DNA of 64,000 bases from Candidatus Pacebacteria bacterium UBA6180 (GTDB lineage: Bacteria > Patescibacteriota > Microgenomatia > UBA1400 > PJMF01), in NCBI GenBank assembly GCA_002422165.1, contig DITQ01000002.1:13174-77173 (forward strand). Direction: 5' to 3'. The notes under the pieces were generated by a model. It did not search any database, was not told the DNA's origin, and was given only the letters and a program-made list of their open reading frames with translations. Of this stretch, positions 3,439-31,638 are shown piece after piece; position 1 is the first letter of the stretch, and the number at the start of each line of letters is the position of its first letter. Position numbers and translations under genes: made by a program.

Positions 3439-5808
3439 TTAGTTACGGTTGCCGTAGTTCACCAAATTTGGCTCGTAAATTACTTTACCCTCTTCATCTT
3501 GAGGACGGTTGCAGTCAGCGCAGTAAAGCTTGGTTAGCGGATCGTAGTAGAAACTGTGCTCCTCAAGCTGTAGATCATCAGCTTCTTCACCTTCTTGAGG
3601 TGGTAAGCCGGTCGAAGCTCTGATCCAGTATTCTTTACGAAAAGTTCCAGAATAGCTAGGCAGTGAGGCTTCCCAGTAGAGTTCTTGGCGAGTGTCAGCG
3701 CAGCTTGCTGCCGGATCAGTTTCAGTGTTGAAAAAGTCAGTGGTATTGTCTCCATCGCCAATGACTAGCTTTCCCAAGCCCGCCTGCGCTGGCATGCCAG
3801 TTAGGCAAACGCTGGCGATTTTGACATCGCTTGGGCGCTCTGGCCAGACGGTTTCCTGGTCTTGGAGCACATAGCTCATTATGTCGTTCCAGATCGGCGC
3901 TGCTCCAGTGATGCCAGATGCTAGATAGCTCATCGAGGTGCTATCATTGTTGCCCACCCAAGTCATAGTTAAGAACTCAGGGGTGTATCCGATGGTCCAG
4001 TTATCGCGCAAATCATTGGTGGTGCCAGTTTTGGCCGAGACGATTTTATTTCGAATAACCAAGCTAGAATTGCTGCCAAAGGCTGCTTGGCGCGCGCTGT
4101 TATCTTGGAGGATGTGATTAGTGAGGTAGGCTGGCGCGCGCGCCATCACTCTCCGCAGCGAGCCGAGTTCGTTGATGGCTTCATCCTCGCTCATTGTAGC
4201 TAGGTTTTGAGTCGTGGCTTGACTGTCATAACTCTCGAGAACTTCGCCGCGGAAATTACTAATCTCCAAGATGCCAGTCAAAGGCACATGCACACCTTGG
4301 TTGGCAAGAACGCCAAAAGCCTCTGCCAATTCGACCATTCTGATCTCACCGCCTCCAAGGGTGAGGGAGAGACCGTAATTAGCTGGATTGGTCCAAGTAT
4401 TTATACCCATGGCCCGAGCTTGATTGATGAATTTCTCGACGCCAATTGTTGCCAAGGCTTTGACAGCGGGAATATTGAGCGAGTTGCCAAGCGACTGGCG
4501 AATAGTGACGGGACCAGAGAAGCCACCGGTGTAATTTTTCGGACAATAATCGCGTTGACCGGCGACGCGGAAACATGTAGGAATATCGAGTAAAATGGTT
4601 CCTGGATTGATGGTTTTTTCGGCCATAGCAGTGGCGTACATTATTGGTTTAATTGAAGAACCTGGTTGGCGTAGCGCCAGGGTGACATTGACCTGACCAT
4701 CGCTTTGGCTATCGAAGTAATCTTTGGAGCCAATCATGGCCAGAATTTCGCCGGTGTTAGGTTTGGTAACGAGAGCTGCACCATTACTAACCTTCAGTCG
4801 CTCCAAAGTTTTGAGTTCTGCTGCCAGTGAGGCTTGAGCGGTTTCCTGTAGGTCTAGGTCTAGAGTGGTGGTGACCCGTAAACCGCCAGTTTCGACCATT
4901 TCTTCGCCATATTTTTCGTAGAGTAAATCGCGGATGTAGAAGACGAAATGAGGGGCTCTGATGTCAGTGCGAGAAATGGCATATTCTAGTACTTCTGCTT
5001 CAGCGCGCTCGGCTGTGGCTTCATCAATATATTTATCTTCAACCATGCGGCGCAAAACTTCTTTTTGACGATTTTTAGCCCGTTCAGGATTAGAGCCAAA
5101 CGGTGAGTAAGTAGTGGGAGATTGTGGTAAGCCAGCCAGCAAAGCCGCTTCGGCTAGGTCAAGTTCGCTAGCGGACTTGGCGAAATATTTGTTGGCAGCG
5201 GCTTCGATGCCGACCGCAGTGCCTCCATAAGAAATGTAATTGAGGTACATTTCCAGAATTTCCTCTTTACTGTAAAGCACTTCTGTCATCACCGCCAAAA
5301 CTGCTTCTTTGATTTTGCGCTGGAGAGTTTTTTCCTTGCTGAGCAGGGCGTTTTTGACGAGTTGCTGAGTGATGGTTGAGCCGCCCTGGACTGTGTTCCC
5401 GCTGAAGTTTTTGAAACCAGCTCGCAGTAAACCGCGCAAGTCTAGGCCATGATGGCGGTAGAAACTTTTGTCTTCGATGGCAATGGTGGCTTGCAAAACG
5501 TGCTCTGGTAGATCGCCAATTTTGATGGGGATGCGGTTTTCTTGACCATAAATTTCGTAGAGTAATTGGCCATGGCGGTCAAAAATCTGCGTACTGACGG
5601 GAAAATTTTCAGTTGAAGTTAAATTGCTTGGAGAGGGTAATTGTTTGTAGAGGTAGATAATAAAAATGATCAAGCTTAGGCCAAGTAAACCTAGTCCAGT
5701 TTGGAGCGAGCGACTTCTGCGTAGTCTGGCCCAAAAAAATTTTCGACTGCGATTGCGAATTCGCCTTGATTTAAGTTGCTTTTTGGTGGCGAGACGAAAA
5801 GGGTTCAT
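3439..5808 (-). CDS. Class A penicillin-binding protein (PBP1A-type bifunctional transglycosylase/transpeptidase)
   Basis: Basic N-terminus + TM helix; GT51 motifs (EDKSFYRHHG, QGGSTITQQLVKN); transpeptidase SxxK-type region (GSSIKP), KTGT motif. Confidence 0.85.
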   Translation of the reverse strand: MNPFRLATKKQLKSRRIRNRSRKFFWARLRRSRSLQTGLGLLGLSLIIFIIYLYKQLPSPSNLTSTENFPVSTQIFDRHGQLLYEIYGQENRIPIKIGDLPEHVLQATIAIEDKSFYRHHGLDLRGLLRAGFKNFSGNTVQGGSTITQQLVKNALLSKEKTLQRKIKEAVLAVMTEVLYSKEEILEMYLNYISYGGTAVGIEAAANKYFAKSASELDLAEAALLAGLPQSPTTYSPFGSNPERAKNRQKEVLRRMVEDKYIDEATAERAEAEVLEYAISRTDIRAPHFVFYIRDLLYEKYGEEMVETGGLRVTTTLDLDLQETAQASLAAELKTLERLKVSNGAALVTKPNTGEILAMIGSKDYFDSQSDGQVNVTLALRQPGSSIKPIMYATAMAEKTINPGTILLDIPTCFRVAGQRDYCPKNYTGGFSGPVTIRQSLGNSLNIPAVKALATIGVEKFINQARAMGINTWTNPANYGLSLTLGGGEIRMVELAEAFGVLANQGVHVPLTGILEISNFRGEVLESYDSQATTQNLATMSEDEAINELGSLRRVMARAPAYLTNHILQDNSARQAAFGSNSSLVIRNKIVSAKTGTTNDLRDNWTIGYTPEFLTMTWVGNNDSTSMSYLASGITGAAPIWNDIMSYVLQDQETVWPERPSDVKIASVCLTGMPAQAGLGKLVIGDGDNTTDFFNTETDPAASCADTRQELYWEASLPSYSGTFRKEYWIRASTGLPPQEGEEADDLQLEEHSFYYDPLTKLYCADCNRPQDEEGKVIYEPNLVNYGNRN

Positions 5809-11606: not shown

Positions 11607-14063
11607 ATGGCAGTCAAGAAAAATTCTTCTAGTCCCAAAAAAATTCGAGGCAAACTGCAAAAAAATGTTTTGGTCGCTACCAAAGTTACTAAAGAAGCGC
11701 CAAAATTTAAGCGCGGTCGGCCCAAGTTGCCACTAAGAATTAGATTGGCTCGCAGCTTCAAAAAAAAATTAACTAAGCTTCATAAAAAATCCAAAAAAAC
11801 ACAAAAAAAATGGCTAGAGCAATATTTTATTCTCTTGCGAGTGTTGCAGATTAAGAGAGGGCGAGGTCGACCGACTTTGCCAGCTACAACTAAACTGAAG
11901 CGTTTTTTTTCTGCCGTCAGCAGTAGCGTCAGCAAAAGCAAACAAAAATTTAACCGTCGCCGATTGTCAGCGGCGCTGTTTCTGCAACGTTTCTTCCGCT
12001 TGCGCAGGAAAGTTGGCCGGCCCAAGAAAAAAGGTTCGTGGTTACCTTTGGCAAGCTCCTTACTTTTCACCATTTTATTTTTGGCTTTTGCTTATTTGGT
12101 TTACGATGTTGGCATCAAAGATCTACCACAAGCCACTGATTTGTCTAGCAAGGCCCAAAACGTCACCACTCGCATTTTGGACCGCAATGGCAAACTTTTG
12201 TTTCGCATCTATGAAGACGAAAATCGCACCCTCATTCCGCTAGCTGAGGTTTCCACCTACCTGCGGGATGCGACCGTCGCCATCGAAGACCAAAATTTTT
12301 ATAAACACCACGGCTTTTCCTTGCGGGGGATTTTTCGCGCTGCCTGGAAGAATTTCTCTAACCAAACTGTTCAGGGCGGCTCAACCATCACTCAGCAGTT
12401 AGTCAAAAATCGCTTACTTAACAATGAAAAAACCTACCGTCGCAAATTACGCGAGTTGCTCCTATCGCTTCTAGTGGAGCGTATTTACACAAAAGAGCAA
12501 ATTTTGGAAATGTACCTTAACACCGTCGCTTACGGTGGTTCGACTTACGGTATCGAAGAAACATCTTGGCGTTATTTCAATAAATCAGCCAGCGATCTGA
12601 GCCTAGCAGAAGCAGCCTTAATTGCTGGCTTGCCACAAGCGCCCTCGACCTACACGCCTTTTGGTGCTAATCCAGAATTAGCTTACGCACGTCAGGCAGA
12701 AGTTCTGCGCCGCATGGTGGAAGATGGCTATATCAGTCAGCTCCAGGCTGATCAAGCCAAGCAAGAGAAGTTGATTTTCAACCAAGATCGCATCGACATC
12801 CAAGCTCCCCACTTCGTCATGTACGTGCGCAAAATTTTAGCTGAGCGCTACGGTGAAGATGTCCTCGCTAAGGGCGGCCTGGAAGTGCGGACCACTCTGG
12901 ACCTAGATTTGCAAAACTTGGCTCAGGAAATTGTCAGTACTGAAATCGCCAAGCTTGCTAACTTCAAAATCACTAATGGTGCAGCCTTGGTAACCAATCC
13001 TAAAACGGGAGAAATTCTTGCCATGGTCGGTGGAGCCAATTATTTCGATTTTGCCCATGATGGTCAGGTTAACGTTACCACTCGACCACGCCAACCAGGT
13101 TCGTCAATCAAGCCGTTGACTTACGCTTTGGCTCTAGAGCGGGGCAAAACAACTGCTTCAGTTATTGACGATTCGCCAGTGGTTTACCAGATTGCTGGCA
13201 GCAAACCCTATGCTCCAGTGAATTATGATGGGCGTTTCCGTGGATCCGTGACTTTGCGTGAGGCTTTGGCTTCATCCTACAATATTCCCGCGGTCAAACT
13301 GCTCGCCGAACTGGGAGTTAACGATCTTATCGATCAAGGTGAAGCAATGGGTATTACCACTTGGCAAGATCGGCGCCGCTTCGGTTTATCCCTGACTCTA
13401 GGTGGCGGCGAGGTTTTGATGACTGACATGGCCAAGCTTTACAGCACTTTTGCCAATTTAGGCTATCCAGTCGGCGTCAATCCTTTTTTGGAAGTAACTA
13501 ATTACAAAGGGGAAGTGCTTTATCGCAATCACTGTGCTCTCGATCAAACTAATTGTTACGAGGAGCCAGCACTCAGTCCAAAGACTGCTTATCTAATCAC
13601 TGATATCCTAGCTGACAATCGCGCCCGCACGCCGGCTTTTGGGGCTTTTTCTGTCCTTAATATTCCAGGGCAAGAGGTAGCGGTCAAAACTGGCACTACT
13701 AACAGTATGAAAGACAATTGGACGATTGGTTACACTACTAACCGTTTGGTTGCTACTTGGGTTGGAAATAACGATAACACGCCGATGAGTTACGTTGCTT
13801 CTGGTATTACTGGTGCTTCTCCAATTTGGAACAAAATTATGCTATCCATGTTAGACGCTGATAACCCACACCTGTTTACGGTGCCAGCCAACATGATTAA
13901 GGTTAAGATCTGTGCCACAACGGGGACCTTGCCTTGCAGTGATTGTCCAAGTGTGGTCGAAGAATTGTTTGTAGAGGGGACAGAGCCGACTAAGGCTTGC
14001 AGTGAGGTTAATTTTGTGCCCCTCCCTGATACGGCCGAACCAAGGAGAGGGCAAGTTTTGTAG
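11607..14063 (+). CDS. Class A penicillin-binding protein (PBP1A-type) with ~150-aa lysine/arginine-rich cytoplasmic N-terminal tail carrying three AT-hook-like GRP motifs
   Basis: GT51 motifs (EDQNFYKHHG, QGGSTITQQLVKN), transpeptidase motifs (GSSIKP, KTGT); N-terminal tail contains KRGRPKLP, KRGRGRPTLP, KVGRPKKKG before the TM helix. Confidence 0.85.
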   Translation: MAVKKNSSSPKKIRGKLQKNVLVATKVTKEAPKFKRGRPKLPLRIRLARSFKKKLTKLHKKSKKTQKKWLEQYFILLRVLQIKRGRGRPTLPATTKLKRFFSAVSSSVSKSKQKFNRRRLSAALFLQRFFRLRRKVGRPKKKGSWLPLASSLLFTILFLAFAYLVYDVGIKDLPQATDLSSKAQNVTTRILDRNGKLLFRIYEDENRTLIPLAEVSTYLRDATVAIEDQNFYKHHGFSLRGIFRAAWKNFSNQTVQGGSTITQQLVKNRLLNNEKTYRRKLRELLLSLLVERIYTKEQILEMYLNTVAYGGSTYGIEETSWRYFNKSASDLSLAEAALIAGLPQAPSTYTPFGANPELAYARQAEVLRRMVEDGYISQLQADQAKQEKLIFNQDRIDIQAPHFVMYVRKILAERYGEDVLAKGGLEVRTTLDLDLQNLAQEIVSTEIAKLANFKITNGAALVTNPKTGEILAMVGGANYFDFAHDGQVNVTTRPRQPGSSIKPLTYALALERGKTTASVIDDSPVVYQIAGSKPYAPVNYDGRFRGSVTLREALASSYNIPAVKLLAELGVNDLIDQGEAMGITTWQDRRRFGLSLTLGGGEVLMTDMAKLYSTFANLGYPVGVNPFLEVTNYKGEVLYRNHCALDQTNCYEEPALSPKTAYLITDILADNRARTPAFGAFSVLNIPGQEVAVKTGTTNSMKDNWTIGYTTNRLVATWVGNNDNTPMSYVASGITGASPIWNKIMLSMLDADNPHLFTVPANMIKVKICATTGTLPCSDCPSVVEELFVEGTEPTKACSEVNFVPLPDTAEPRRGQVL

Positions 14064-14109
14064 ATTAAATAATGATGCGTTTTGACATATTTATTGTAGA
14101 ATATCTAGC

Positions 14110-14970
14110 ATGTCAAAAGAATCTTTAGAAGGATGGAGACGTTTTAATGTAAATGAAAGCTCACTTTCAGCCAGAGTTATGCATAGAGTTGTAGCTATGG
14201 TGCATCCTGACAGATATCCACAATTCCAGCGACTAATGCTTCTAATGCGAGCTATAGACAACCTCGTTGACGAAGGCAATAGTTTTGAAGAAGCAAAAAA
14301 ACTAATTAAAGAACAATGGATAGCGTTGAGTAAAATGTCGAAATTCGAAAATTTGTCTTCCGACCTTAGTTTTTTAGGAACAGAACTTAATGCCTTGGTA
14401 AATGGGATTCACGACAAAGATTTAAAATTGAATTTTATAAAGCACTACCAAAAATTACTTTTTTATTACTATCTAGATTTGCTTCATCGGAAACACGCTA
14501 AACCTTATAGAGAGGATCGTTTAACTAAGCACAGGGAAGGAGGCTTTTACCACCTTTTTGGTGCTATCAAAATTCTCTTGCGAGATAGTGACTTGGAGAA
14601 GTCGAACTTTAAGGATTTAATGGATGCATGGGCAGAAGCGGAGCCACTAGATGATATAGAGGAAGATTTGCCCGTTGGACTAGTTCTGTACAGCCCTAAA
14701 GATGGGGCTGATTGGGTAAAAAATCTTAAAAAACATGAAGCAGTAAATATTAAGGAGATTGATGCATTCGTCAGGAAAATTCGTTGGCAATTGTCAAGAG
14801 GATTGTTGAATAGTTTTATGGCTGGTTACCAAGAATTTGGTGGGATAGTAGGTTTACTTATGTCACTTGATTTTGCAAAAAGAGGAGTATTTCTTCTTAC
14901 AAAAAGATTCCAGCCAAAAGAAGAAGTTGTTTTTGCTAGTAAAAGTTTTAGCAATAATCTAGAAAATTAG
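14110..14970 (+). CDS. Squalene/phytoene synthase-like (trans-isoprenyl diphosphate synthase, head-to-head) family protein, AT-rich gene
   Basis: Two Asp-rich motifs in the positions expected for SQS/PSY fold: MRAIDNLVDEG (DxxxD) and DDIEEDLPVG..Y.P (cf. DVGED..GR.YLP); about 38% GC versus about 50% in neighbours; -10-like TAGAAT 7 nt before ATG. Confidence 0.35.
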   Translation: MSKESLEGWRRFNVNESSLSARVMHRVVAMVHPDRYPQFQRLMLLMRAIDNLVDEGNSFEEAKKLIKEQWIALSKMSKFENLSSDLSFLGTELNALVNGIHDKDLKLNFIKHYQKLLFYYYLDLLHRKHAKPYREDRLTKHREGGFYHLFGAIKILLRDSDLEKSNFKDLMDAWAEAEPLDDIEEDLPVGLVLYSPKDGADWVKNLKKHEAVNIKEIDAFVRKIRWQLSRGLLNSFMAGYQEFGGIVGLLMSLDFAKRGVFLLTKRFQPKEEVVFASKSFSNNLEN

Positions 14971-15162
14971 TTTTATAATCCAGCCAATCAGCAACACTAT
15001 AACTAGCAACACCGGTGCCACCCAGCGCTGAGTTAGCTCCTCTTTTTCCGTTTTTCGCTGGCGCTTTTTGGCCTGTTTAGCTAAGTAGGCCTGCTCGATC
15101 TTGTCAGTTTTTTTGGCGACATCACGAATTAGCTCAGGATCGGTTTGATAAGTTGGTTTCAT
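14959..15162 (-). CDS. Small membrane protein (hypothetical)
   Basis: 67-aa ORF with basic N-terminus and C-terminal TM helix VAPVLLVIVLLIGWIIKLIF, immediately downstream of cmk on the minus strand. Confidence 0.3.
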   Translation of the reverse strand: MKPTYQTDPELIRDVAKKTDKIEQAYLAKQAKKRQRKTEKEELTQRWVAPVLLVIVLLIGWIIKLIF

Positions 15163-15167
15163 TTTTG

Positions 15168-15860
15168 CTAGTGAACTTTTTTGACTTTGGCCGCGATTAG
15201 CTCCACTACTTCTTCAATGTCTAAGTTGCTGGTGTCAAGCACCCAAGCATCCTTAGCAACGTGCAAGGGATCAGCGTCGCGCTTGGTGTCGCGCTCGTCG
15301 CGTTCTTTGATCTCAGCGATGACCTCTTCCAAGCTGATGTCGACACCTTTGCCCAAATACTGGGCGTGTCTTCGCTCTGCGCGGCTCTCCACACTAGCAG
15401 TTAGGAAAATCTTGATTTGTGCCTCAGGAAGGACGCGAAAAGTGATGTCGCGGCCCTCCATGACTACATTTTGACTGGCCGCGATTTTTTGCTGTTTCTG
15501 CACAAGCACTCGGCGCAGTTTGGGTAGCACGGCGACTTTGGAAGCGCCTTCGCTGCACTTTTGGGTGCGGATGGCCCAGGAGACATCCTCTCCGTCGAGA
15601 ATAACTGTGGTTAAGCGGCCATCAGTTTCCTTAGGAGGTTTTGGATTACGCATTTGTAGCTCGCTTTTTTCAAGTAGGGCGACGACCTGATCTTCATCAC
15701 CCAGTTTAACTTTGGCGCGAATGGCCAAAAGGGCTGTGGCGCGATACATGGCGCCAGTGTCGACGTAAAGAAAACCCAATTTCTGTGCCAAGAGGCGAGA
15801 AACAGTGCCTTTGCCAGCGGCTACAGGGCCATCGATGGCAATTTGAAAAGATTGGTGCAT
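15168..15860 (-). CDS. cmk: Cytidylate kinase (bacterial type)
   Basis: IAIDGPVAAGKGTVSRLLAQKLGFLYVDTGAMYRA: canonical Cmk N-terminus and P-loop. Confidence 0.85.
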   Translation of the reverse strand: MHQSFQIAIDGPVAAGKGTVSRLLAQKLGFLYVDTGAMYRATALLAIRAKVKLGDEDQVVALLEKSELQMRNPKPPKETDGRLTTVILDGEDVSWAIRTQKCSEGASKVAVLPKLRRVLVQKQQKIAASQNVVMEGRDITFRVLPEAQIKIFLTASVESRAERRHAQYLGKGVDISLEEVIAEIKERDERDTKRDADPLHVAKDAWVLDTSNLDIEEVVELIAAKVKKVH

Positions 15861-15863
15861 GCC

Positions 15864-16103
15864 TTATTTTTTTCTAGATTTAGCTTTGGCAGGCTTTTTG
15901 CTTGAGGATTTCTTGGTGCTTGATTTCTTGGGGGTGATCATCCACTCTTCTCGGTCAGAAGTGATGAGCCCACCAAGTCCAACGATCACCAGAATCAGGG
16001 GCCAGAGGTTCCAGAAAGCTCTAGGCAAGTAACCTAGGTTGGAAGCCATGAAAATGAGTCCCATAATTACCAAAGTGATTGGCCAAAAAGTGCGTTTGGG
16101 CAT
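15864..16103 (-). CDS. Small membrane protein with lysine-rich C-terminal tail (hypothetical)
   Basis: Two predicted TM helices followed by KKSSTKKSSSKKPAKAKSRKK; 4 nt upstream of cmk. Confidence 0.35.
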   Translation of the reverse strand: MPKRTFWPITLVIMGLIFMASNLGYLPRAFWNLWPLILVIVGLGGLITSDREEWMITPKKSSTKKSSSKKPAKAKSRKK

Positions 16104-16139
16104 ATCTATTATTAAAGCCTAATTTTAAACTGGAAGCAA

Positions 16140-16460
16140 GTGTATTTTTCCTTGAGTAAATTTGTTTTTTTATTATATGATATCTCCAAGATGACGAAAT
16201 CTGCAAAAGAGTTGAAAGTTGCTGCTGAACGGGGAGCCGTCAGTACGATTGCTAGAGAAGCAAAAAAATCTAATCTTCCATGGGAGTTTTTCAAGCAGTT
16301 ACTTGTCAGGGCAATTGGCGTGCAGGCTCAATTGATAGACAGGCAAGTGACGTCTGACGGCAGCAATACTTCAGCTGTGCAAAAAATGGAAAGTCTTGCT
16401 GCGAAATTAACTTTTGGTGCAAATATAAAAAGATCAATTGACGAGTACCTAGAAGATTAA
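16140..16460 (+). CDS. Hypothetical protein (true start possibly at the internal ATG at 16191, MTKSAKEL...)
   Basis: ORF of 106 aa; no motifs; moderately AT-rich. Confidence 0.3.
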   Translation: MYFSLSKFVFLLYDISKMTKSAKELKVAAERGAVSTIAREAKKSNLPWEFFKQLLVRAIGVQAQLIDRQVTSDGSNTSAVQKMESLAAKLTFGANIKRSIDEYLED

Positions 16461-16464
16461 TTTT

Positions 16465-16905
16465 CTATCTCAATTTACTAATTTTCGCCAACTCTCGTTT
16501 TAAATCTCTCTTCTTAATCACTTCACGTTTTTCGTATTCTTTCTTGCCTTTGCCTAGAGCCAACTCAAGCTTAATGCGGTTGTGAGAGATGAAAAAAGCC
16601 AAGGGGACGATAGCGAAGCCTTTCTGGCGACTTGCCTCGATGAGGGCTTCTACCTCACCTCTTTTGAGTAAAAGCTTGCGAGAGCGCTTGGGGTCATAAT
16701 TTTCTTGTTTGGCAAAAGAGTAGGCGTTGATTTGAGCGCCAAGCAGAAACAACTCGCCGCTGATTTCCTTGATGTGGCTGCCGTTTAAGCTAGCTTGCTG
16801 GAGGCGCAAGCTTTTGACTTCTGCTCCGGTCAAAACTACTCCAGCGACAAATTTTTTGCCGAGAGTGTATTCGAAGCTCGCTTTTTTGTTGAAAACCAGT
16901 GACAC
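16465..16905 (-). CDS. smpB: SsrA-binding protein SmpB
   Basis: NKKASFEYTLGKKFVAGVVLTGAEVKSLR matches the SmpB core; 146 aa. Confidence 0.85.
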   Translation of the reverse strand: MSLVFNKKASFEYTLGKKFVAGVVLTGAEVKSLRLQQASLNGSHIKEISGELFLLGAQINAYSFAKQENYDPKRSRKLLLKRGEVEALIEASRQKGFAIVPLAFFISHNRIKLELALGKGKKEYEKREVIKKRDLKRELAKISKLR

Positions 16906-16909
16906 AAGC

Positions 16910-18685
16910 CTATTTTAACAGATCTATCTCATAAATCACGGAACCGCTCAGGGCATAGAGCTTTTGTCCATTTGCTTGGAAAGCCAGACTGGTCACCCCT
17001 GCTAGTTCGTTGCTTTTGATTTCGCTGATAAGTTGGCCTTCTTTGGTGAGCAGCAACAGGCGGCGCTGCTGTTTTTCTAGAGCTACTAGTTGGTTGTTAA
17101 CTTCATTTTGAGCTAGCAGCAAGCTGCTGCTGGGTAGACTGCTCAAGCCTGCGATTTGCCAATCAAGTTTGCTGCCGCGGCTGAATTTAAAAATTTGTCC
17201 GTTTTTGTCGCTTAGCCATAAGTCACCATCGATCAGCAGGTCGCTGATTTGGTCGAAACCAAGGCCTTGTTTGTCGATTAGCCAACCAATTGGTTCGCTT
17301 AGTTGACCTTTGTCGAAATGATAGCGATAAACATTTCTTTTTTCTGGGTTGAGCAGATAGAGGTAAGGGCCGAAGCTGGCGGCTAAATTGGCGGATTTGT
17401 CCGACTCTCCCTCTTCTTTGATGCGACTCCATTGACGCTCGTTGCTACTTAGGTCAAGCAGCCAAATTCCTTGACTAAGAACAAATAATTTGCCATCACT
17501 GATGGTGAAATCTCTGATCACGCCTCCTTCAGTCAGGCGCAAGTTTTCCTGACTTTGGTCAGCACTGAGCCATAAGATATCCTGCTGATTGTTTTCGAGG
17601 ATAAAAAGTCCTTCGCTACTGCTAATCATTTTTTGGCCTAGAAAGTCGCCGAGATTATAAGCAATCGCTAGTTGATCGAGGGAGTTTTCTGCGGAGATCG
17701 AAGAAATTAGTTTCTCTAGGGCAGCAATTTCTGCCTCAATGATTTGTAAACTGTCTTTGTTTTTGGTTTTTTCCTTGAGGGCTTGGAGTGCTTGGAGTTG
17801 TTGGTTAGCGCGCTCGCGGGCTTGCAGTGGTTGGCTAAGTAGCAATTGATTGAAGTCAGTGCTTGCGCCCTTGATTGCATTAACTTGCTCTTGTGCTGAA
17901 GCGGTAGCTTTGGCTTGCTGATAATTAACCAGCGAATTGATGCCGAGGATGAGCAAGCTGATTCCCAAAAGAATGCTGAGAATGGTCAAAATACGGCGTT
18001 TACCTTGTCTTTTGATGGCTAGATAGATTTTTTTTAGAATGTAACTGATTTTTTTCGCGAAACTGAGGGTTTTCTGGGCAATCTTCGACCAATTAATTTT
18101 TCTTTTGGTGGCGACAGTTTGTTCGGTTGTTTTCTCCACGTAGCTGACAAATACCAAGTTGTCACTTTGCAAGCCCTGCTTTTGACGTAATAAGGTCAGC
18201 TCACCCACTAACTTTTCCAGGCTAATATCGCTCTCTAGTAGACTACTCAGCGTGTTGACGGTTGGTGTTTGTAGCAAATTGCTGAGAATAATTTGGTCAC
18301 CCTCTTGCAATTTGCCGACGATCAGTTTGATTTCTCCTTGACTAGTCAAGATTTTTTTCGCTTGTCCACGGCGCTTAATAGTAACTTCACCAGCATAGGT
18401 GGCAAAGGTAATTTGCTCGCCCTGCAGATGACATAGAGCTAGTTCCAGGCTGAGATTTTTTTGGCGGACGTTGCTTAGTAAATCGAGTACGTGTTGGTGG
18501 AGCTGTTCGGGACTAGTGATCTGCCAGGTTTGACACTCTGTTTCCAGATCTTTAGCCTCACTTGTAGCGTTCTCGCCACGAAGGGTAAACAACATCGCCA
18601 GCTGGCGATCTTGACTGCGGATTGTTCCAGCACAGGCATCAAGGCGGGGTGGAGCCAGGATTGATATAGATTGAGCCTCTTGCAC
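16910..18685 (-). CDS. Hypothetical bitopic membrane protein (cytoplasmic ~200-aa N-domain, TM helix, coiled-coil and large extracytoplasmic C-domain)
   Basis: 591 aa; TM helix ILTILSILLGISLLILGINSLV; coiled-coil segment after TM; no catalytic motifs recognised. Confidence 0.5.
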   Translation of the reverse strand: MQEAQSISILAPPRLDACAGTIRSQDRQLAMLFTLRGENATSEAKDLETECQTWQITSPEQLHQHVLDLLSNVRQKNLSLELALCHLQGEQITFATYAGEVTIKRRGQAKKILTSQGEIKLIVGKLQEGDQIILSNLLQTPTVNTLSSLLESDISLEKLVGELTLLRQKQGLQSDNLVFVSYVEKTTEQTVATKRKINWSKIAQKTLSFAKKISYILKKIYLAIKRQGKRRILTILSILLGISLLILGINSLVNYQQAKATASAQEQVNAIKGASTDFNQLLLSQPLQARERANQQLQALQALKEKTKNKDSLQIIEAEIAALEKLISSISAENSLDQLAIAYNLGDFLGQKMISSSEGLFILENNQQDILWLSADQSQENLRLTEGGVIRDFTISDGKLFVLSQGIWLLDLSSNERQWSRIKEEGESDKSANLAASFGPYLYLLNPEKRNVYRYHFDKGQLSEPIGWLIDKQGLGFDQISDLLIDGDLWLSDKNGQIFKFSRGSKLDWQIAGLSSLPSSSLLLAQNEVNNQLVALEKQQRRLLLLTKEGQLISEIKSNELAGVTSLAFQANGQKLYALSGSVIYEIDLLK

Positions 18686-18690
18686 TGAGT

Positions 18691-19842
18691 TTAGTGTAAC
18701 ACATTTTTGGTGCTAATTTTCAAATTCGGTTGTCGGTCGGTCGATTCTAAGTCGGCCACTTCTCCTCGCTCTAGCTGATAGCCTGCCACCAAGCCAATCA
18801 TGGCGGCATTGTCAGCGCAGAGTTTCTTGCTGTAAGGCACGCGCAGGGGAATTTTTTTGCCACTTTGCTTGGCGTATTGGCGCAAGGTTTGGCGCAAAAT
18901 CTGGCGCAAATTGCTGTTGGCTGCTACTCCGCCGCCTAGCCAAACCTCGCTGATGGTCGTGACGGGTGCTTGGCCAGGTTGTAAATGGCGCAAGAAATTG
19001 CGACTGGGATAAACTCTCTTCTCCAAATTTGGACTAAGTAGGATTCGCTCGAGTTTGTAGGCGATTTGCTCGAAAACAGTTGCTTGTAGTGTGGCCGCTA
19101 GATCATAGGTAGCTTGTTGGTCTAGTTGGTCTTGGTTTTCTAGCTCGTTGATCAGGTTGCGTGCAGCTGTTTTGATCCCAGAGAAACTTAAGTCAAAGTT
19201 GGTTTGGGCGGTCATGGCTCTTGGCAGGGTGAAACGATCCTGGTTGCCTTTTTTGGCAAATTTCTCGATCAAAGCGCCTGCTGGATAGCCAAGGTTGAGC
19301 AGGCGACCGACTTTATCTAAGCATTCGCCAGCAGCATCGTCGATGGTGTGACCAAGTCGTTGGTAATAGCCAATTTTTTCAACCAAAATGAACTCGCTGT
19401 GGCCACCAGAAACGACGATTGCTAGCGCTGGCAGTTTGGGCGTTGGGAGGGCAGCCAGCGCTCTACCAGCCGGTACGGCCAAAGGCGATAAAGCGTGAGC
19501 TTCGATGTGATTGACGGAGATCAATGGCTTCTGGTGTTTCCTGGCCAATTCTTTGGCTTTGGCCAAACCCACTTCCAGAGCAGGTGCTAAGCCTGGACCG
19601 ACGGTGACGGCAATGGCTGCGATGTCCACCCAAGTCGCTCGGGCTTGCCGCAGAGCTAGAGCGATCGCTGGAGCGAGGTTTTCGCGGTGGGCTTGTTTGG
19701 CCAGAGTGGGAAAAACCCCACCGAACTGTCGGTGAATTTGGTTTTGCGAGGCGACGACGTTGCTTAGGACCTCTTGACCCATGACCACGGCGACGCTGGT
19801 GTCATCGCAGCTAGTGTCGATAGCGAGAATATTAACGCTCAT
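18691..19842 (-). CDS. tsaD: tRNA N6-adenosine threonylcarbamoyltransferase TsaD
   Basis: MSVNILAIDTSCDDTSVAVV N-terminus and HIEAH metal-binding motif; start placed at the internal ATG (19842), the 39 upstream codons of the ORF track look like non-coding read-through. Confidence 0.8.
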   Translation of the reverse strand: MSVNILAIDTSCDDTSVAVVMGQEVLSNVVASQNQIHRQFGGVFPTLAKQAHRENLAPAIALALRQARATWVDIAAIAVTVGPGLAPALEVGLAKAKELARKHQKPLISVNHIEAHALSPLAVPAGRALAALPTPKLPALAIVVSGGHSEFILVEKIGYYQRLGHTIDDAAGECLDKVGRLLNLGYPAGALIEKFAKKGNQDRFTLPRAMTAQTNFDLSFSGIKTAARNLINELENQDQLDQQATYDLAATLQATVFEQIAYKLERILLSPNLEKRVYPSRNFLRHLQPGQAPVTTISEVWLGGGVAANSNLRQILRQTLRQYAKQSGKKIPLRVPYSKKLCADNAAMIGLVAGYQLERGEVADLESTDRQPNLKISTKNVLH

Positions 19843-20929
19843 GGATGTGAATCTTTCTCCGGTTTTCTTCCTGGTTAAAGTCAAGAGTGACGATGGGGGT
19901 TTGTGGCGCGAAGCTGAGCCACTGAGCAATTTGCGAAAACCACTCGATGACCACGACATTGTTTGGTTGCACTAGACTTGGGATGTCAAGTAGATTCAAT
20001 TCCTCCTGACTTTCAATTTTCCAGACGTCGAGGTGATAAAATTTGCCGCTAGTTTGCAAACGAGTGTACTCGTACTCATTAAGGTAAGAATAGGTGGGCG
20101 AACTAATGGTTTCCTTGATATCCAAGAATTTGGCCACGCCTTTGGCGAAAATAGTTTTACCCATGCCTAGGTGGCCGTTGAGGGCGAAGACCAGACCACT
20201 TTTTTGTAGCTGATTGAGGTGATTGAGCATCAAGCGCCCAGCTAAATCGAGAGTTTCGTTTTCATTTTGACTCCAGAGAGTTTCTCCTTGGTTATCGTTG
20301 AGTGAGCCACGCAGGGCGATTGGCGTGGAGAGAGTGGTGTCAACGACCACCGAGGGTTCGTTTTGTGGCAATTCGCCAACATCGATAATCAGATCGATCA
20401 GGGATTGTTGTTTGGCAGATAAATTGTTCAAAACATCGTTGACAGTGTGTGGGCGTTTTTTGCCTGAGGCATTGGCCGAAGTGCTAGTGATGGCCCTTCC
20501 AAATTTGGAAACCAAATCGGTGATTAGTGGATAAGCAGGGATGCGAATACCCAGAGTGCCAAACTCAGAATTGACTCGTGGATCGACGAGGTTTTTGCTT
20601 CGTGAGACGACGGTGAAAGGTCCAGGCAGGAAATTTTGGTAAAATTTCTGTGCCTGGTCGTTGATTTCGACGTATTTGGCGGCCATAGCTTGGTCGCTGA
20701 CGGCGATCGACAGTGGTTTACCTTCACGTCGTCCTTTGTAGCGTAGTAATTTGTCGATGGCGGCGGCGCTCTCTGCATCTGCCCCGATGCCGTAGACGGT
20801 TTCAGTTGGATAGATCAGCAAGCCGCCTGCTTTCAGGCACGCCACCGCCTGTTCTAGCGCCAGCGCACACTGTTTCTGGTCATTGATGTCGAGTTTAATG
20901 ATTCGCATTTCCAAAACATATGTTACCAT
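19832..20929 (-). CDS. Fusion protein: threonylcarbamoyl-AMP synthase (TsaC/YrdC domain) + tRNA t6A ATPase TsaE (YjeE domain)
   Basis: N-terminal YrdC motifs (LIYPTETVYGIGADA, KGRREGKPLSIAV, TSANASG, PSVVVDTT); C-terminal TsaE motifs (NGHLGMGKTIFAKGVAKFL P-loop, SPTYSYLNEYEY, FYHLDVWKI, VVVIEWFSQ). Overlaps tsaD start by 11 nt. Confidence 0.7.
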   Translation of the reverse strand: MVTYVLEMRIIKLDINDQKQCALALEQAVACLKAGGLLIYPTETVYGIGADAESAAAIDKLLRYKGRREGKPLSIAVSDQAMAAKYVEINDQAQKFYQNFLPGPFTVVSRSKNLVDPRVNSEFGTLGIRIPAYPLITDLVSKFGRAITSTSANASGKKRPHTVNDVLNNLSAKQQSLIDLIIDVGELPQNEPSVVVDTTLSTPIALRGSLNDNQGETLWSQNENETLDLAGRLMLNHLNQLQKSGLVFALNGHLGMGKTIFAKGVAKFLDIKETISSPTYSYLNEYEYTRLQTSGKFYHLDVWKIESQEELNLLDIPSLVQPNNVVVIEWFSQIAQWLSFAPQTPIVTLDFNQEENRRKIHIHER

Positions 20930-20937
20930 AAGGATCT

Positions 20938-21258
20938 GTGTCCCAAACTCTATCAGAAAATGCAGCTGACATAAAATTCGACCTATTTGTTCGTTCGCGC
21001 GAGATGGAGCAGATTGCCATCTATTTGGAACAATTGATGTTCAAGCATCAGAAAGAGCGCGAGCTTTTTGTCGAAGAAAACCGCAGCTATTTGGAAAACT
21101 TGATGCCTCTTTTGGTCGAAAATTCTAACCTTAGTCTAGAAGGTATGCAGCTTGACCGCGAAGCTGCCGCTTTGTCGATGCAACTAGCCGTCAATTTGCG
21201 CAAATCTTTGTCGCTAATCAACGCCCTATTTTATGGAGTTGAAGGCTTGCGATCTTGA
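20938..21258 (+). CDS. Hypothetical protein
   Basis: 106-aa ORF divergent from the tsaCE gene; no motifs. Confidence 0.35.
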   Translation: MSQTLSENAADIKFDLFVRSREMEQIAIYLEQLMFKHQKERELFVEENRSYLENLMPLLVENSNLSLEGMQLDREAAALSMQLAVNLRKSLSLINALFYGVEGLRS

Positions 21259-21281
21259 GTAAATTTCACCAGTTGGTCAAA

Positions 21282-21308
21282 TTAGCAGTCCATAATGCTT
21301 ATTGCTAA
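21282..21308. promoter_or_regulatory. CIRCE-like operator (TTAGCAGTC-N9-TATTGCTAA) upstream of groES
   Basis: 15/18 match to TTAGCACTC-N9-GAGTGCTAA with perfect outer TTAGCA-N15-TGCTAA; a -10-like CATAAT lies inside the spacer; 72 nt upstream of groES ATG. Confidence 0.6.
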
Positions 21309-21379
21309 GTAATAATTTTTATGTTAAATTTCCTGCTACAAACTTAAATTACAAGTTAGTTTCAAAAAAAGGAGGTCTC

Positions 21380-21769
21380 ATGTCAGATCTAAACGTCAAG
21401 AAAATTCAGCCCACCAAGGGTTACGTCTTGGTTGAACCAAGCAAAGCAGAGGCCAAAACCAGCTCCGGCATTATTTTGCCAGAAAACGACAGCGAGAAGC
21501 CCCAGCATGGGGTAGTACTCGCGGTGGGTGAGGCAGGTGGCTGTTGCAGCGATGATGGTTGTTGTGAGCCCAAAGGTGACCACGGCTGTTGTGGCGGTGG
21601 TTGCGGTGACTGCGGTTGTGATGATGATAAGGGCGAGTCTTGTTGCGAAGCTCCAGTTAAAGTTGGTGACAAAGTTATCTACAAGAAATGGGGTGGCAAC
21701 GACTTCAAAATCGGCGAAACAGAATATCAATTCCTCAAGTTCGAGGACATTCTCGCCGTTATCAAATAG
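21380..21769 (+). CDS. groES: Co-chaperonin GroES with a 37-residue Cys/Gly/Asp-rich insertion replacing the roof hairpin
   Basis: AGGAGG RBS 5 nt upstream; GroES core (KGYVLVEP.., GIILPE.., VLAVGEAG / PVKVGDKVIY.., FLKFEDILAVI); insertion GCCSDDGCCEPKGDHGCCGGGCGDCGCDDDKGESCCE (14 Cys) at residues about 53-90. Confidence 0.8.
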   Translation: MSDLNVKKIQPTKGYVLVEPSKAEAKTSSGIILPENDSEKPQHGVVLAVGEAGGCCSDDGCCEPKGDHGCCGGGCGDCGCDDDKGESCCEAPVKVGDKVIYKKWGGNDFKIGETEYQFLKFEDILAVIK

Positions 21770-23442: not shown

Positions 23443-23454
23443 AAATCTTTTCAA

Positions 23455-23600
23455 GCTTGTCTTGCGACACGCTTGACTGAAACATTTGCTTGTTGAAGTT
23501 AACTGCCTTCTTCAAGCTCGGTGAGGCCGCTGTTTCTTGCTTGTTCAATTTTGAGCTAGCAGGCAGCGGCCTCAAACGGTCTTAGACGACTTAAAAAGAT
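23455..23600 (+). repeat. Intergenic conserved element, copy A (3' of groEL)
   Basis: Shares 5' motif (GCGACACGCTTGACTGAAAC), central motif CTCGGTGAGGCCGCTG and 3' motif ACGGTCTTAGACGACTTAAAAAG with copies at 31440-31596, 42250-42390 and 26540-26610; internal 10-bp inverted repeat GAGGCCGCTG/CAGCGGCCTC. Confidence 0.6.
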
Positions 23601-23658
23601 TATTTTTGAGAAAGAAAAAAAAGCGGCGGTTTCTAATGGTCTTTCGTCAAGAATTTTT

Positions 23659-24072: not shown

Positions 24073-24146
24073 GTGAGCTAAATTGGGATTTAATAGAGAA
24101 TCTTTTGTTGACGTAGTCGTGTTTTTTTGCTGAATTTACTTGAAAG

Positions 24147-24220
24147 TAGCGGGACTGAGATTCGAACTCAGGACCTTCGGTTTATGAATCCGATGCTCTA
24201 ACCAGCTGAGCTATCCCGCC
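24147..24220 (-). tRNA. tRNA with CAT anticodon (elongator Met or lysidine-modified Ile2); CCA not encoded
   Basis: Reverse complement GGCGGGATAGCTCAGCTGGTTAGAGCATCGGATTCATAAACCGAAGGTCCTGAGTTCGAATCTCAGTCCCGCTA folds as cloverleaf (7-bp acceptor with G1-U72, GTTCGAATC T-arm, anticodon loop TTCATAA); one A-A mismatch at 31:39. Confidence 0.6.
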
Positions 24221-24309: not shown

Positions 24310-24378
24310 CGCGGGATAGTGTACGGTGCACGTGGGGCTCATAATCCTACAGGCTAGGTTCGACTCCTAGTCCCGCAA
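24310..24378 (+). tRNA. tRNA with CAT anticodon, candidate initiator tRNA-fMet (C1-A72 mismatch, CGCGGGA acceptor like E. coli tRNAfMet); short 3-bp D-stem; CCA not encoded
   Basis: CGCGGGATAGTGTACGGTGCACGTGGGGCTCATAATCCTACAGGCTAGGTTCGACTCCTAGTCCCGCAA; T-arm CTAGG-TTCGACT-CCTAG; anticodon loop CTCATAA. Confidence 0.55.
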
Positions 24379-24518
24379 CAATCAACCCATGATCAAATCA
24401 AAATTTAAATTCCTCGTGACTCACTCCACTTCTTCTTGCTCCTAAATTTGCTGGATGCCGTATTTTCCCAGCTGCACCACGTTTTTCAATAAATATTACC
24501 GTGAAGAAATAGGAAAAA

Positions 24519-26526: not shown

Positions 26527-26539
26527 ATTTCAATAAACT

Positions 26540-26610
26540 TTTCAGAGTCGCGTTCGACGGAAATATTTTTTAATTAACGGCTTTATTTCTCACTCGTTGA
26601 AAGCGCTGCT
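26540..26610 (+). repeat. Intergenic conserved element, partial copy D (3' of recombinase gene)
   Basis: CAGAGTCGCGTTCGACGGAAAT and CTCGTTGAAAGCGCTG match the 5' and central motifs of copies A-C; 3' motif not evident (overlaps end of minus-strand ORF). Confidence 0.5.
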
Positions 26611-26612
26611 AA

Positions 26613-26873
26613 TCACCATCTTCTTTTTTGATCTTTTAAAGGGACATAATCTTTTTTTTCTGTCCTTTCCTCCTCTTCTTTTGTCAAAGCTAAAAAAAGA
26701 TTACGTACTCTGACTCCCCATTTAACAGTTTTTTGAGCTGTTTGCTCATGGCGCAGCAGTCGCAACAAGGTAGTTTTTTCTTTATCATCCATAAGTTTAA
26801 GATCTTCGAGCTCAGCATGTTTTAAAGCTGCTTCTGCTACTCTTTGGGTTGTGTCATTGATTTCGTTTGCCAT
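26613..26873 (-). CDS. Hypothetical small protein
   Basis: 86-aa ORF, charged/helical; no RBS seen; overlaps element D at its 3' end. Confidence 0.3.
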   Translation of the reverse strand: MANEINDTTQRVAEAALKHAELEDLKLMDDKEKTTLLRLLRHEQTAQKTVKWGVRVRNLFLALTKEEEERTEKKDYVPLKDQKRRW

Positions 26874-29489: not shown

Positions 29490-31430
29490 ATGACCGAAAA
29501 CGCAGCTGATCAAAAAAACCCAAACACTACTTCAAAGAAGCCTACAGCCAGCCAAAATTCTGGTGCGCCCAAGCAAAATCCTTCATACAAGCGCGTCGAA
29601 GTCAAAATTAATTTGAACAAATTTTTCAGCAAAACTTTGATTTACTTGTTGATCATTTTCCTATTTGTGCCTTCGCTGCTTGGCGCCTTTGGTGCTGGCA
29701 ATGCCCGCGAATCAATCACTATCAGTCAGATGGTTACTGATATTCGTGAGGATAAAGTCGCCAAAATGGAAGTTTACACTCAGGAGTTGCGCTTGACCTA
29801 CAAGGATGACTCCAAAAAAGTTGCCAAAAAAGAAGAAGGCCAACAAGCGCTGCAGATTTTAAACGCCGCTGGAATTGATCTGACCACTGTCGACACGGAA
29901 GTTCATGATGCCACTTTTTTGCAAATGATGTGGGAGTTGATTATCAATTTCTTGCCAATTATTTTGATGTTCGTTTTCCTGATGATCATGTTCCGCCAAG
30001 CACGTGGTGGGGCAGGTGGTGACATGATGTTTGGCATGGGCAAGAGCAAAGCTAAGGTTTTCGTCAAAGGCAAGCAAAACATTTCCTTCAAGGACGTCGG
30101 TGGCATGGATGAAGCCAAGAAAGAACTTGAGGAAATTGTTGACTTTTTGAAAAATCCCAAGAAATACACGCGTGTTGGTGCGCGTACGCCCAAGGGTGTG
30201 CTTTTGGTCGGGCCAGCAGGTACAGGTAAAACCCTGCTTGCTAGAGCAGTGGCTGGCGAAGCCAATGTGCAATTTCTTTCGATTGCTGGTAGTGAATTTA
30301 TGGAAATGCTGGTTGGCGTCGGCGCATCGAGGGTCAGAGATCTATTTGATACTGCCAAAAAAATTGCTCCATCCATTATTTTCATCGATGAAATTGATGC
30401 CATTGGTCGCACTCGTAGCCGCAACAGCATGTCTTCTCACGATGAGCGCGAGCAGACGCTAAACCAAATTTTGGTGGAAATGGACGGTTTTACTCAGAAC
30501 GACAACGTGATTGTTATGGCTGCCACCAATCGCGGCGATATGCTTGATCCAGCTTTGGTTCGTCCAGGTCGTTTCGATCGTCGCGTCCAAGTCAACTTGC
30601 CAGATCTCGAAGAGCGCAAATTTATCTTAAGTATTCACGCTAAAAACAAAGTTTTCACCAAAGACCTGAATTGGGATCGCGTTGCCAAGCGCACCGTCGG
30701 TTTTTCTGGAGCTGATCTCGAGAATATGCTCAATGAAGCTGCCATTGCTATCGCTCGCGAAAATCGTACTGAGGTAACTATGGAAGACATCGAAGAAGCC
30801 TCGCTTAAGACTAAGTATGGTCCGAGCAAAAAACGTCTTCAAGACGAGCTCGAGAAAAAGATGACCGCCTATCACGAAGCTGGTCACGCCGTCTTGGCTC
30901 ACGTTTTGCCTTATGCCGATCCGGTCCACCGTATTTCAATTGTTTCTCGCGGTCAAGCTCTCGGTTATACTTTTACTCCTCCAGAAAAAGACAAGTTGCA
31001 AATCCTCAAGTCAGAACTACTTGATGATATGGTTGTGATGTTTGGTGGGCGCGCGGCTGAAATGTTGATCTTCAACGAGCAAACCGCTGGCGCCAGCAAT
31101 GACATCGAGCGAGCTACCAGAATCGCTCGTAGCATGGTGGTGCGCTTCGGGATGAGTAGCTTAGGACCGATGAATTTCGGACCGATTTACGAAACTGAGG
31201 ACTACAATCGTGCTTGGGTTGAGCCAGACAAATTATCTCCTAAGATTCAGGAACAAGTTGATGCAGCCATGTTGTCTTACATCGGTGAAGCTGAAACCAA
31301 AGCCATGACTTTGCTCAAAAAATATCGTTCCAAGTTGGAGCTAGTAGCCACGGAGTTGCTTGAGCGTGAAACTTTGGACGCTGATGATTTTGCCAAACTG
31401 ATGGACATGCCCAAAGCCAAAGTCGTATAA
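29490..31430 (+). CDS. ftsH: ATP-dependent zinc metalloprotease FtsH (with ~40-aa low-complexity N-terminal extension)
   Basis: Walker A GPAGTGKT, Walker [13 protein letters not shown], zinc-binding HEAGH; two N-terminal TM segments. Confidence 0.9.
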
Positions 31431-31439
31431 TCGAATTAT

Positions 31440-31596
31440 AGTTTTGCTCTTTAATTCAGTCACGTGCGACGGAAAGGTTTGCTTCATTGAAGTTGACAAT
31501 CTTCTTCTTACTCGGTGAAGGCGCTGTTTAAAACATAAGTTATTTGTTTTTGTTACTGCCCATCGCCTTCAACGGACTGCCTTAAAGAGCAAAACT
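31440..31596 (+). repeat. Intergenic conserved element, copy B (3' of ftsH), flanked by a perfect 15-bp inverted repeat
   Basis: AGTTTTGCTCTTTAA (31440-31454) / TTAAAGAGCAAAACT (31582-31596); 5' motif CAGTCACGTGCGACGGAAAG, central CTCGGTGAAGGCGCTG, 3' ACGGACTGCCTTAAAGAGC; about 80% identical to copy A over the central 50 nt. Confidence 0.6.
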
Positions 31597-31638
31597 ATTA
31601 GAAATATTTAAAGGTAAGTTTTTTTAAAACACAACGCA

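Follow-up and report, generated by a model that had tools for sequence, protein, structure and literature searches.

In the 64,000-nucleotide stretch of Candidatus Pacebacteria bacterium UBA6180 analysed here (contig DITQ01000002.1, hereafter the window), four intergenic sites carry copies of a structured repeat element, all of them on the plus strand. Copies A, B and C are full elements located downstream of the genes for GroEL, FtsH and HrcA, and the decayed copy D follows the gene for an XerC/D-type tyrosine recombinase. The identities of these neighbours, and of the 5′-3′ exonuclease, GrpE and DnaK genes, were confirmed with Pfam. A first-pass annotation of the window had reported four plus-strand sites with shared sequence blocks, which is confirmed by the sequence, by pattern searches and by covariance models (CMs). 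A gapped pattern of the blocks matches exactly these four sites, with 0 matches expected from 100 shuffles. The first CM, built from the three full copies and run on the window with filters off, detects only the four sites in the 64 kb, with scores of 153, 146, 127 and 19 bits, and a second CM, built from 26 copies, scores them at 121, 120, 97 and 30 bits. CM E-values of 1e-28 to 1e-35 mark the family as real.

Copy A occupies positions 23444-23601, directly downstream of the groEL stop codon at 23442. Its closing helix is imperfect and is followed on the 3′ side by ATTTTTG, and the CMs match it at positions 23455-23590 (126.7 bits, three-copy model) and 23454-23594 (96.7 bits, 26-copy model). 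Copy B (31438-31598) is located between the ftsH stop codon at 31430 and the start of the 5′-3′ exonuclease gene at 31639, scores 153.1 bits with the three-copy and 120.6 bits with the 26-copy model, and is closed by 25 base pairs in the computed fold. Copy C (42230-42401; 145.6 and 120 bits, respectively; 27 closing pairs in the fold) begins its closing helix at the final base of the hrcA stop codon (42230), and grpE starts at 42418. With the closing helix counted, the element is about 160-190 nt long, and not about 150 nt as first estimated. Nor does it start 15-30 nt beyond the stop codon: in copies B and C the helix abuts or overlaps the stop codon, with a gap of -1 to +7 nt.

Each copy consists of a near-perfect closing helix P1 of 22-30 bp with two hairpins inside it, the side hairpin P2 and the long hairpin P3. 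The three helices meet in a three-way junction inside P1 that is almost without unpaired bases, with junction strands of 2, 1 and 0 nt. In copy B, the 5′ arm of P1 (31438-31461, ATAGTTTTGCTCTTTAATTCAGTC) pairs with the 3′ arm (31575-31598), and the 15-bp inverted repeat previously noticed at the boundaries of this copy is real and forms, together with the inner helix, part of the 24-nt closing arm. The inner 13-17 bp of P1 are conserved, with a consensus of about GCACTTTAATACAGTC / GACTGTATTAAAGTGC; the outer part has a copy-specific sequence, yet is complementary within each copy. P2 (31465-31510 in copy B, placed from the consensus structure and pair counts) follows an 'AC' in the junction and has the conserved sequence G(Y)UCGACUAAAAUUGUU ... 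AACAAUCUUUGUCUC(R)C, which copy B carries as CGAC.GAAA ... ATCTTCTTC. A single U separates P2 from P3 (31511-31574 in copy B). The base of P3 has the consensus CUC(A/G)GUGAAGUCGCUG / CAGCUCCUUCAAUGG, represented in copy B by CTCGGTGAAGGCGCTG paired with CATCGCCTTCAACG. The distal segment of P3 (~35 nt in copy B, ~35-45 nt in the family) is nearly constant in length and less conserved in sequence, and the hairpin passes straight into the 3′ arm of P1 with 0 unpaired bases. P3 is fully Watson-Crick in all three full copies of the window, whereas most other copies contain a tandem U.C/C.U mismatch.

Copy D (26536-26646; recombinase stop codon at 26526) retains the 5′ arm, the start of P2 and the 5′ strand of P3, and the loop and 3′ strand of P3 are mostly deleted. 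It scores 19.3 bits with the three-copy model and 29.7 bits (E about 1e-4) with the 26-copy model, and its original description as a partial copy is borne out, as it is internally deleted and decaying. The earlier count of four copies was too low, since the 3′ part of another copy (GCGGCGGTTTCTAATGGTCTTTCGTCAAGAAT) is present on the plus strand at about 23623-23655. This remnant matches the P3 3′ strand and the 3′ arm of the copy that follows groEL in L117 (L-numbers denote loci from other genomes, with L035/L061 corresponding to CP011212).

The fold is accompanied by strong covariation in all three helices. In the 26-copy alignment, standard pairs occupy 87% of the cells, compared to 75% in column shuffles and 35-42% with slid partners. 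Both sides are changed in 28 of the 45 pairs (17±2 in shuffles) and in 124 cells (35±5 in shuffles); in P3, pair counts give seven of 13 pairs with both sides changed. The proposal that the element is structured, and not a degenerate repeat, thus stands, and the compensatory change CAGTC/GACTG versus CAGAC/GTCTG on which it was based is real. RNAalifold, which had been suggested as a check, was run on a MAFFT alignment that included the flanks; misalignment of the variable arms left P3 as the only helix recovered, and arm pairing was therefore measured copy by copy. The arms pair within their own copy with a mean energy of -28.2 kcal/mol, compared to -7.8 kcal/mol with the arms of other copies, and the own 3′ arm is the best-ranked partner in 19 of the 26 copies. 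The core blocks are nearly invariant, the loop has a mean identity of 44% and the outer arms are specific to each copy. The mean pairwise identity between copies is 66%, and their similarity is star-like, with no clustering by genome or site. A small open reading frame (ORF) was rejected, as neither strand contains a consistent open frame, and so was a hammerhead or other ribozyme, as a hammerhead core needs longer junction strands and no Rfam model matches. Searches of Rfam 15 with the window, and with copy A and the copy from L110 at E-values up to 10, gave no match at gathering thresholds; what appeared below them was unrelated, the best such match being mir-964, a eukaryotic microRNA model, at 29 bits against a 100-bit cutoff. 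The family is not described in Rfam 15 or in the searchable literature.

Searching one genome per species with the block pattern, followed by verification with the CMs, produced at least 114 pattern matches, most of which are chance or coding matches. Among the matches listed, at least 18 further copies in eight genomes were verified, and related copies were present only in close Pacebacteria relatives. All eight genomes are low in GC and have inconsistent taxonomic titles, and the GroEL proteins of CAZIBP and CP011212 are 94% and 91% identical to that of the window. By its GroEL, the window itself belongs to the Pacebacteria group of Microgenomates, within CPR/Patescibacteria. Four further copies come from syntenic relatives. 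The metagenome scan returned duplicates of the CP011212 copies and one new copy, and the scan of viral contigs gave no true matches. The genomes hold at least 3-6 pattern-matching copies each; the pattern has a low sensitivity, matching none of the four copies found by synteny, and ~170 kb flanking the scanned copies contain only one extra copy, which is truncated. We estimate roughly about ten to a few tens of copies per ~0.85 Mb genome, and the window is locally rich in them. The GC content of the window is 43-49%, compared to about 30-38% in related element-bearing genomes, and the window copies are shifted likewise. The record titles of CP011212, L003, L014, L018, L033, L053, L068, L072 and L075 look wrong. 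CP011212 is titled 'TM6 GW2011_GWF2_28_16', and its GroEL is named Pacebacteria GW2011_GWF2_38_9; several metagenome-assembled genomes of ~31-38% GC are titled 'uncultured Pseudomonadales' and contain Pacebacteria-type genes, for example a GroEL 94% identical to that of the window.

The orientation of the element relative to genes is biased. In 13-14 of 14-16 co-directional gene pairs the element and the genes point the same way; the count gives 14 sense and two antisense cases, the latter belonging to one orthologous site where the element lies beside obg on the opposite strand and runs against both neighbouring genes. In most cases the spacer is taken up entirely by the element, with P1 at or over the stop codon and its end 7-40 nt before the next start codon. 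The co-orientation with neighbours and the position right after stop codons that were noticed in the window mostly hold in other genomes, and the description of the element as belonging to 3′ regions fits most copies. It does not fit four copies located between divergent genes, which are 5′ to the downstream gene, or the antisense site near obg; several copies lie between convergent genes.

Three of the four window copies follow groEL, ftsH and hrcA, an association with chaperone and protease genes that had been found curious and that could point to a heat-shock-specific cis-regulatory RNA. However, the genes upstream of the element elsewhere are greA, tmk, dnaX (at two orthologous sites), HU, and genes encoding a SufD-like protein, an ABC-2 permease, a glycosyltransferase and an epimerase, and obg and sugar-metabolism genes are among its neighbours in other genomes, so that eight further genomes show diverse neighbours. 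In close relatives the element is missing from the sites that follow groEL, ftsH and the recombinase gene, and three of these genomes have an ordinary terminator after groEL in its place. Furthermore, heat-shock control appears to have separate sites: CIRCE-like inverted repeats of the relaxed consensus TTAGCA-N15-TGCTAA are located at 21282-21308, upstream of groES, and at 41450-41476, upstream of hrcA; they are unrelated to the element and are likely to be the HrcA operators of this organism. The heat-shock explanation is refuted by this distribution, and the chaperone association in the window is coincidental, which removes the lead of a heat-shock RNA regulator. The element itself was rejected as a CIRCE sequence (TTAGCACTC-N9-GAGTGCTAA), since the CIRCE-like sites lie elsewhere and the element is downstream of the heat-shock genes; only a GCACT/AGTGC pentamer is common to CIRCE and some copies. 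The HrcA protein of the window (41514-42230) is short, with 238 aa, and matches Pfam only in the C-terminal HrcA domain; the N-terminal winged-helix part was not detected in a Pfam search of the window protein.

Relatives of the window were fetched via their GroEL proteins, and their loci were searched with both CMs. The groEL site is filled in the window, L117 and L134, whereas L131, L132 and L133 have a canonical GC-rich hairpin with a T-run and no element. The recombinase site contains a full copy in L117 (14995-15136) and the decayed copy in the window, and neither CM found a copy at this site in L132, L133 or L118. The site after the ribonucleotide reductase (RNR) gene is occupied in L134 only, and the copy is absent from L117, L131 and L132; the groEL genes of L117 and L134 are 89% identical in nucleotide sequence. 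The ftsH site is filled in the window and empty in close relatives. In L132 (20155-20594) and L133 (20358-20851), the gap between ftsH and the exonuclease gene contains a small ion-channel gene (141 aa); in the window this gene is absent from 31431-31638, and copy B is in its place. The fetched loci of the more distant genomes L118 and L119 contain no copies detectable by either CM. Copies are gained and lost between close relatives, and therefore the family is or was mobile. An origin of the outer arms from insertion into older terminator hairpins was rejected, because the arms are AT-rich and share a common consensus of about TAACTCTGCACTTTAATACAGTC, unlike the GC-rich terminators of the empty sites.

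Copy A is orthologous to copy L134a (L134:11647-11788). The two have the loop sequence TGTTTCTTGCTTGTTCA in common, and their P3 helices are set apart by two compensatory double substitutions, GAGGCCGCTG/CAGCGGCCTC versus GAGACCGTTG/CAACGGTCTC. The remnant of a second copy is present 3′ of both (in L134 at about 11830-11860), and its intact form is the groEL copy of L117, which it matches at L117 11740-11775; therefore, the groEL intergenic site was occupied twice. Both the groEL and the recombinase sites are occupied in the window and in L117, the groEL genes of which share 38% identity at four-fold sites, a value that is partly due to the shift in GC. Individual copies are retained at orthologous sites across species with saturated synonymous sites. 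The family is old and has undergone repeated turnover, and the retained copies are constrained in core sequence and helix pairing. In L110, a truncated copy (3988-4075, plus strand, 38.8 bits) is located 35 nt from a full inverted copy (4111-4251, minus strand).

The gains and losses between close relatives, the double hit on one intergenic site and the decayed copy could also be produced by a selfish element acting at the DNA level. Such an element would be a non-autonomous palindrome that moves as single-stranded or cruciform DNA and has no role as RNA; its core would be a site for a transposase, recombinase or nucleoid protein, and its arms would be held complementary by intra-strand templated repair. 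The star-like similarity of the copies agrees with this explanation, the arms are almost purely Watson-Crick, with G:U pairs not in excess over A:C, and the orientation bias could mirror the direction of replication because genes are co-oriented with positive GC skew. However, the flanks of 24 copies show no target-site duplication, shared or copy-specific, and neither does the RNR site when the filled (L134) and empty (L117) states are compared. The outermost ends are the least conserved, which is the opposite of transposase-bound termini, and ~0.5 Mb of related loci yielded no parent transposon, transposase gene, solo or insertion sequence (IS)-borne arm, or gene flanked by a pair of arms. 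The mean pairwise identity of 66% argues against a recent burst, and the retention at orthologous sites despite saturated synonymous divergence occurs in very compact genomes. We therefore do not regard the element as a clean cut-and-paste miniature inverted-repeat transposable element (MITE), given the missing duplications, the unconserved outer ends, and the lack of a parent or solo arm in the loci covered. The first-pass annotation had held randomly oriented copies with intact terminal repeats and duplications to be the mark of a pure MITE; the terminal repeats have unconserved outer ends, no duplication is present and the orientation is biased. The purely selfish explanation is a possibility to which we give rather little weight.

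Runs of 4-6 T directly follow P1 in copy A, L117a, L117b, L134b and L075, and L134a has an interrupted T-rich stretch at the same place. All of these copies, six of the 26, are without a closely following co-transcribed gene, and T-runs are for the most part lacking where the next start codon is 7-40 nt away. The T-run, a feature of intrinsic terminators, is present in these six copies (interrupted in L134a) and absent from most of the others. On the upstream side, -10-like hexamers are present just before P1 in 13 of 24 copies, compared to seven of 24 on the other side, a promoter-like enrichment that is weak and because of which a promoter before every copy was rejected. The best consensus match in the region of 21-32 kb (11/12) is the sigma-70-like sequence TGGACA-18-TATAAT at 31402-31431 on the plus strand, within the end of ftsH and 7 nt before copy B. 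Judged by its sequence, it is a possible start of a transcript of its own for the element or for the exonuclease gene.

The promoter-like sequences, including TGTTATAAT at two independent sites and the match before copy B, would also suit multi-copy stable small RNAs excised at the closing duplex, which would act in trans or bind or titrate a protein via the junction. A conserved core within a closing helix that need only pair is the pattern of processing stems around stable RNAs, and the P3 distal segment, of nearly constant length and variable sequence, would confer copy-specific specificity. Nevertheless, the copies do not share a terminator or any other defined 3′ end, the enrichment of hexamers is slight in flanks that are AT-rich on both sides, and the P3 tip goes back to one consensus and looks like a segment under weaker constraint. 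Small RNAs of this kind are, in our view, quite improbable.

The element is similar in kind to several families of bacterial intergenic repeats. Its closest functional analogue is the Correia element of Neisseria, with which it shares the ~100-160 bp size class and the non-coding, multi-copy, intergenic character. Like the Pacebacteria element, Correia elements (CREE/NEMIS) have inverted repeats, of ~26 bp, around a directional conserved core, and their locations are mostly conserved between strains, with some gained or lost (PMC2649163). They are often co-transcribed, their mRNA hairpin is bound or cut by RNase III in Neisseria, and their ends can create promoters (PMC2649163). The alignment of the Pacebacteria element lacks the published Correia core ends, CCGGTACGG and TCAGGACAA, and there is no sequence similarity between the two. 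Correia termini are conserved and duplicate a TA target, whereas the outer ends of the Pacebacteria element vary and covary and no duplication was found; its core is a three-way junction with covariation, and its host belongs to a different phylum, within the candidate phyla radiation (CPR). RNase III action is documented for Correia, whereas for the Pacebacteria element a duplex of 22-30 bp is predicted.

ERIC/IRU elements of enterobacteria are imperfect palindromes of ~127 bp in transcribed intergenic regions, are conserved across species, vary in copy number and have no known transposase. The Pacebacteria element is likewise an imperfect palindrome that is intergenic, cross-species and variable in copy number, but has no sequence relation to ERIC, which is a single long hairpin found in both orientations and not a three-way junction with biased orientation. 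REP sequences stabilise upstream mRNA and, like the Pacebacteria element, REP/BIME are extragenic palindromes located after genes. However, REPs are simple hairpins of 20-40 nt that are usually clustered and mobilised by RAYT transposases, and the Pacebacteria element, five times larger and with a branched conserved core, was rejected as a member because of its length of 160-190 nt and this core. The element is of the same general type as ERIC and further small mobile repeats (PMC2229807, PMC10969869, PMC3049150). MITEs and the pneumococcal RUP, BOX and SPRITE repeats are small non-coding dispersed repeats that differ in presence or absence, fold, and affect neighbouring genes (PMC10969869, PMC3049150). 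The Pacebacteria element shares with them its small size, dispersal, presence/absence differences and folding. As in MITEs, it is short, non-coding and multi-copy, with presence/absence differences at the groEL, recombinase, ftsH and RNR sites. The termini of MITEs are conserved and correspond to those of a parent IS, and MITEs make target-site duplications; neither is seen here: the 22-30 bp inverted arms are conserved in their inner 13-17 bp and differ in the outermost bases. The copies are also old, with 66% mean identity, and evolve by compensatory change, unlike MITEs.

An integron attC site was rejected, as the R′′/R′ boxes (RYYYAAC ... GTTRRRY) are absent from the consensus and the neighbours are core housekeeping genes. 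A retron-like or recombinase-linked element was rejected as well, since there is no reverse transcriptase and the recombinase is syntenic in element-free genomes. Membership in the Correia, ERIC, REP, MITE, attC or any Rfam family is thus not supported by testable defining features.

We favour, with slightly better than even confidence, the view that these structured repeats, dispersed between genes in a narrow clade of Pacebacteria (Microgenomates), form a new lineage-specific family of the Correia/ERIC kind, probably co-transcribed as a cis-acting RNA duplex. The element would be co-transcribed with its flanking genes, usually in the sense orientation, and the long RNA duplex would act in cis on the transcripts that contain it. 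By its anatomy and by analogy, a duplex of at least 22 bp would be a natural substrate of RNase III and an obstacle to 3′ exonucleases. The element may be an RNase III processing site that parts cistrons, for example hrcA from grpE-dnaK, a 3′-end hairpin that shields the upstream mRNA, or, where a T-run follows, an intrinsic-type terminator. With a U-run, it could stand in for a conventional terminator, as at groEL. The dnaK operon of Bacillus is known to be processed in this way, and the hrcA/grpE site would similarly give the repressor and chaperone parts of the operon different stabilities. The conserved junction suggests an additional protein partner, and probably binds a protein. From the candidates listed in the first-pass annotation, a stability or terminator element and a MITE-like repeat fit best, and both are probably partly true.

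A sense RNA is suggested by the orientation bias, the placement between stop codon and ribosome-binding site, the subset of copies with T-runs, and some conserved G:U pairs of the plus strand. The cis-acting RNA duplex builds on the observed family, structure, distribution, turnover and orientation bias, and adds transcription, RNase III or terminator action and a protein partner, which we infer only. Several observations weigh against it. Six of ~25 copies are not downstream of a co-oriented gene, and the decay of copy D shows that some copies are not maintained. A conserved three-way core goes beyond what RNase III cleavage or termination in their simple forms would require. The single mismatches in P1, counted by eye, include five of the G:U type and 11 of the A:C type. 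Near-perfect Watson-Crick arms could be maintained by DNA-level templated repair in a quasi-palindrome without selection on RNA, and therefore the covariation of P1 alone is no proof of an RNA function.

The remaining observations of this kind concern the strand, and would be accounted for if the functional RNA were the reverse complement, running antisense to the genes on either side. In 19 of 24 copies the minus strand gives the better fold, with a mean advantage of 4.5 kcal/mol, and it contains 84 G:U pairs compared to 60 on the plus strand; P2 alone also folds better on the minus strand in 19 of 24 copies. On the minus strand, an invariant A:C mismatch of the plus strand turns into a G:U pair, and a tandem G.A motif takes the place of the frequent tandem U.C/C.U mismatch. 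In addition, the 5′ end of copy B has a promoter-like sequence, GTGACT-17-TATAAT, that is directed outward on the minus strand. Such an RNA would, however, be antisense to the operon in 14 of the 16 co-directional cases, and a dedicated promoter would fit only inside the leader of the next gene. G40:U55 is the commonest plus-strand pair at its position, as is a U:G pair in an alternative register of P2, and the tandem mismatch is replaced by Watson-Crick pairs in six of the 26 copies. Assignment of the strand from G:U versus A:C counts and fold energies was abandoned because the signals conflict. We consider a functional minus-strand RNA very unlikely.

The surroundings of the groEL site contain further features. 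A divergent pair of tRNA-Met genes is located downstream of groEL in the window (24146-24220, minus strand; 24310-24379, plus strand), and the pair is conserved in L117, L133 and L134. A NUDIX gene between groEL and the tRNA-Met pair is extra in the window. Beside the tRNA-Met pair, L134 contains an integrated element (12080-21632) that is absent from relatives and encodes a serine resolvase, helix-turn-helix regulators, a Bro-N protein, a Macro-domain protein and many small ORFs; it is probably a prophage or an integrative island of a CPR bacterium. On the minus strand of the window, positions 19832-20929 encode a single 365-aa protein with Sua5/YciO/YrdC (TsaC) and TsaE domains, adjoining TsaD, and this TsaC-TsaE fusion is conserved in every relative fetched.

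CPR genomes are very small and tightly packed, and their non-coding RNAs and mobile repeats are almost unstudied. A bolder version, which we hold to be unlikely, is that the element is a domesticated mobile RNA module, in which a new class of protein-binding or catalytic three-way-junction RNA is excised from operon transcripts at its long duplex and serves as portable punctuation of ultra-small CPR genomes, or in which the copies yield trans-acting small RNAs with copy-specific P3 tips. If this were true, cistron boundaries, mRNA half-lives and termination would be set without conventional signals. The element provides a readily testable target in a group that is hard to study, and the CM can be used for annotating these genomes. 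The kept sites, the compensatory stems and the replacement of a terminator suggest a portable structured module for operon punctuation or mRNA stability.

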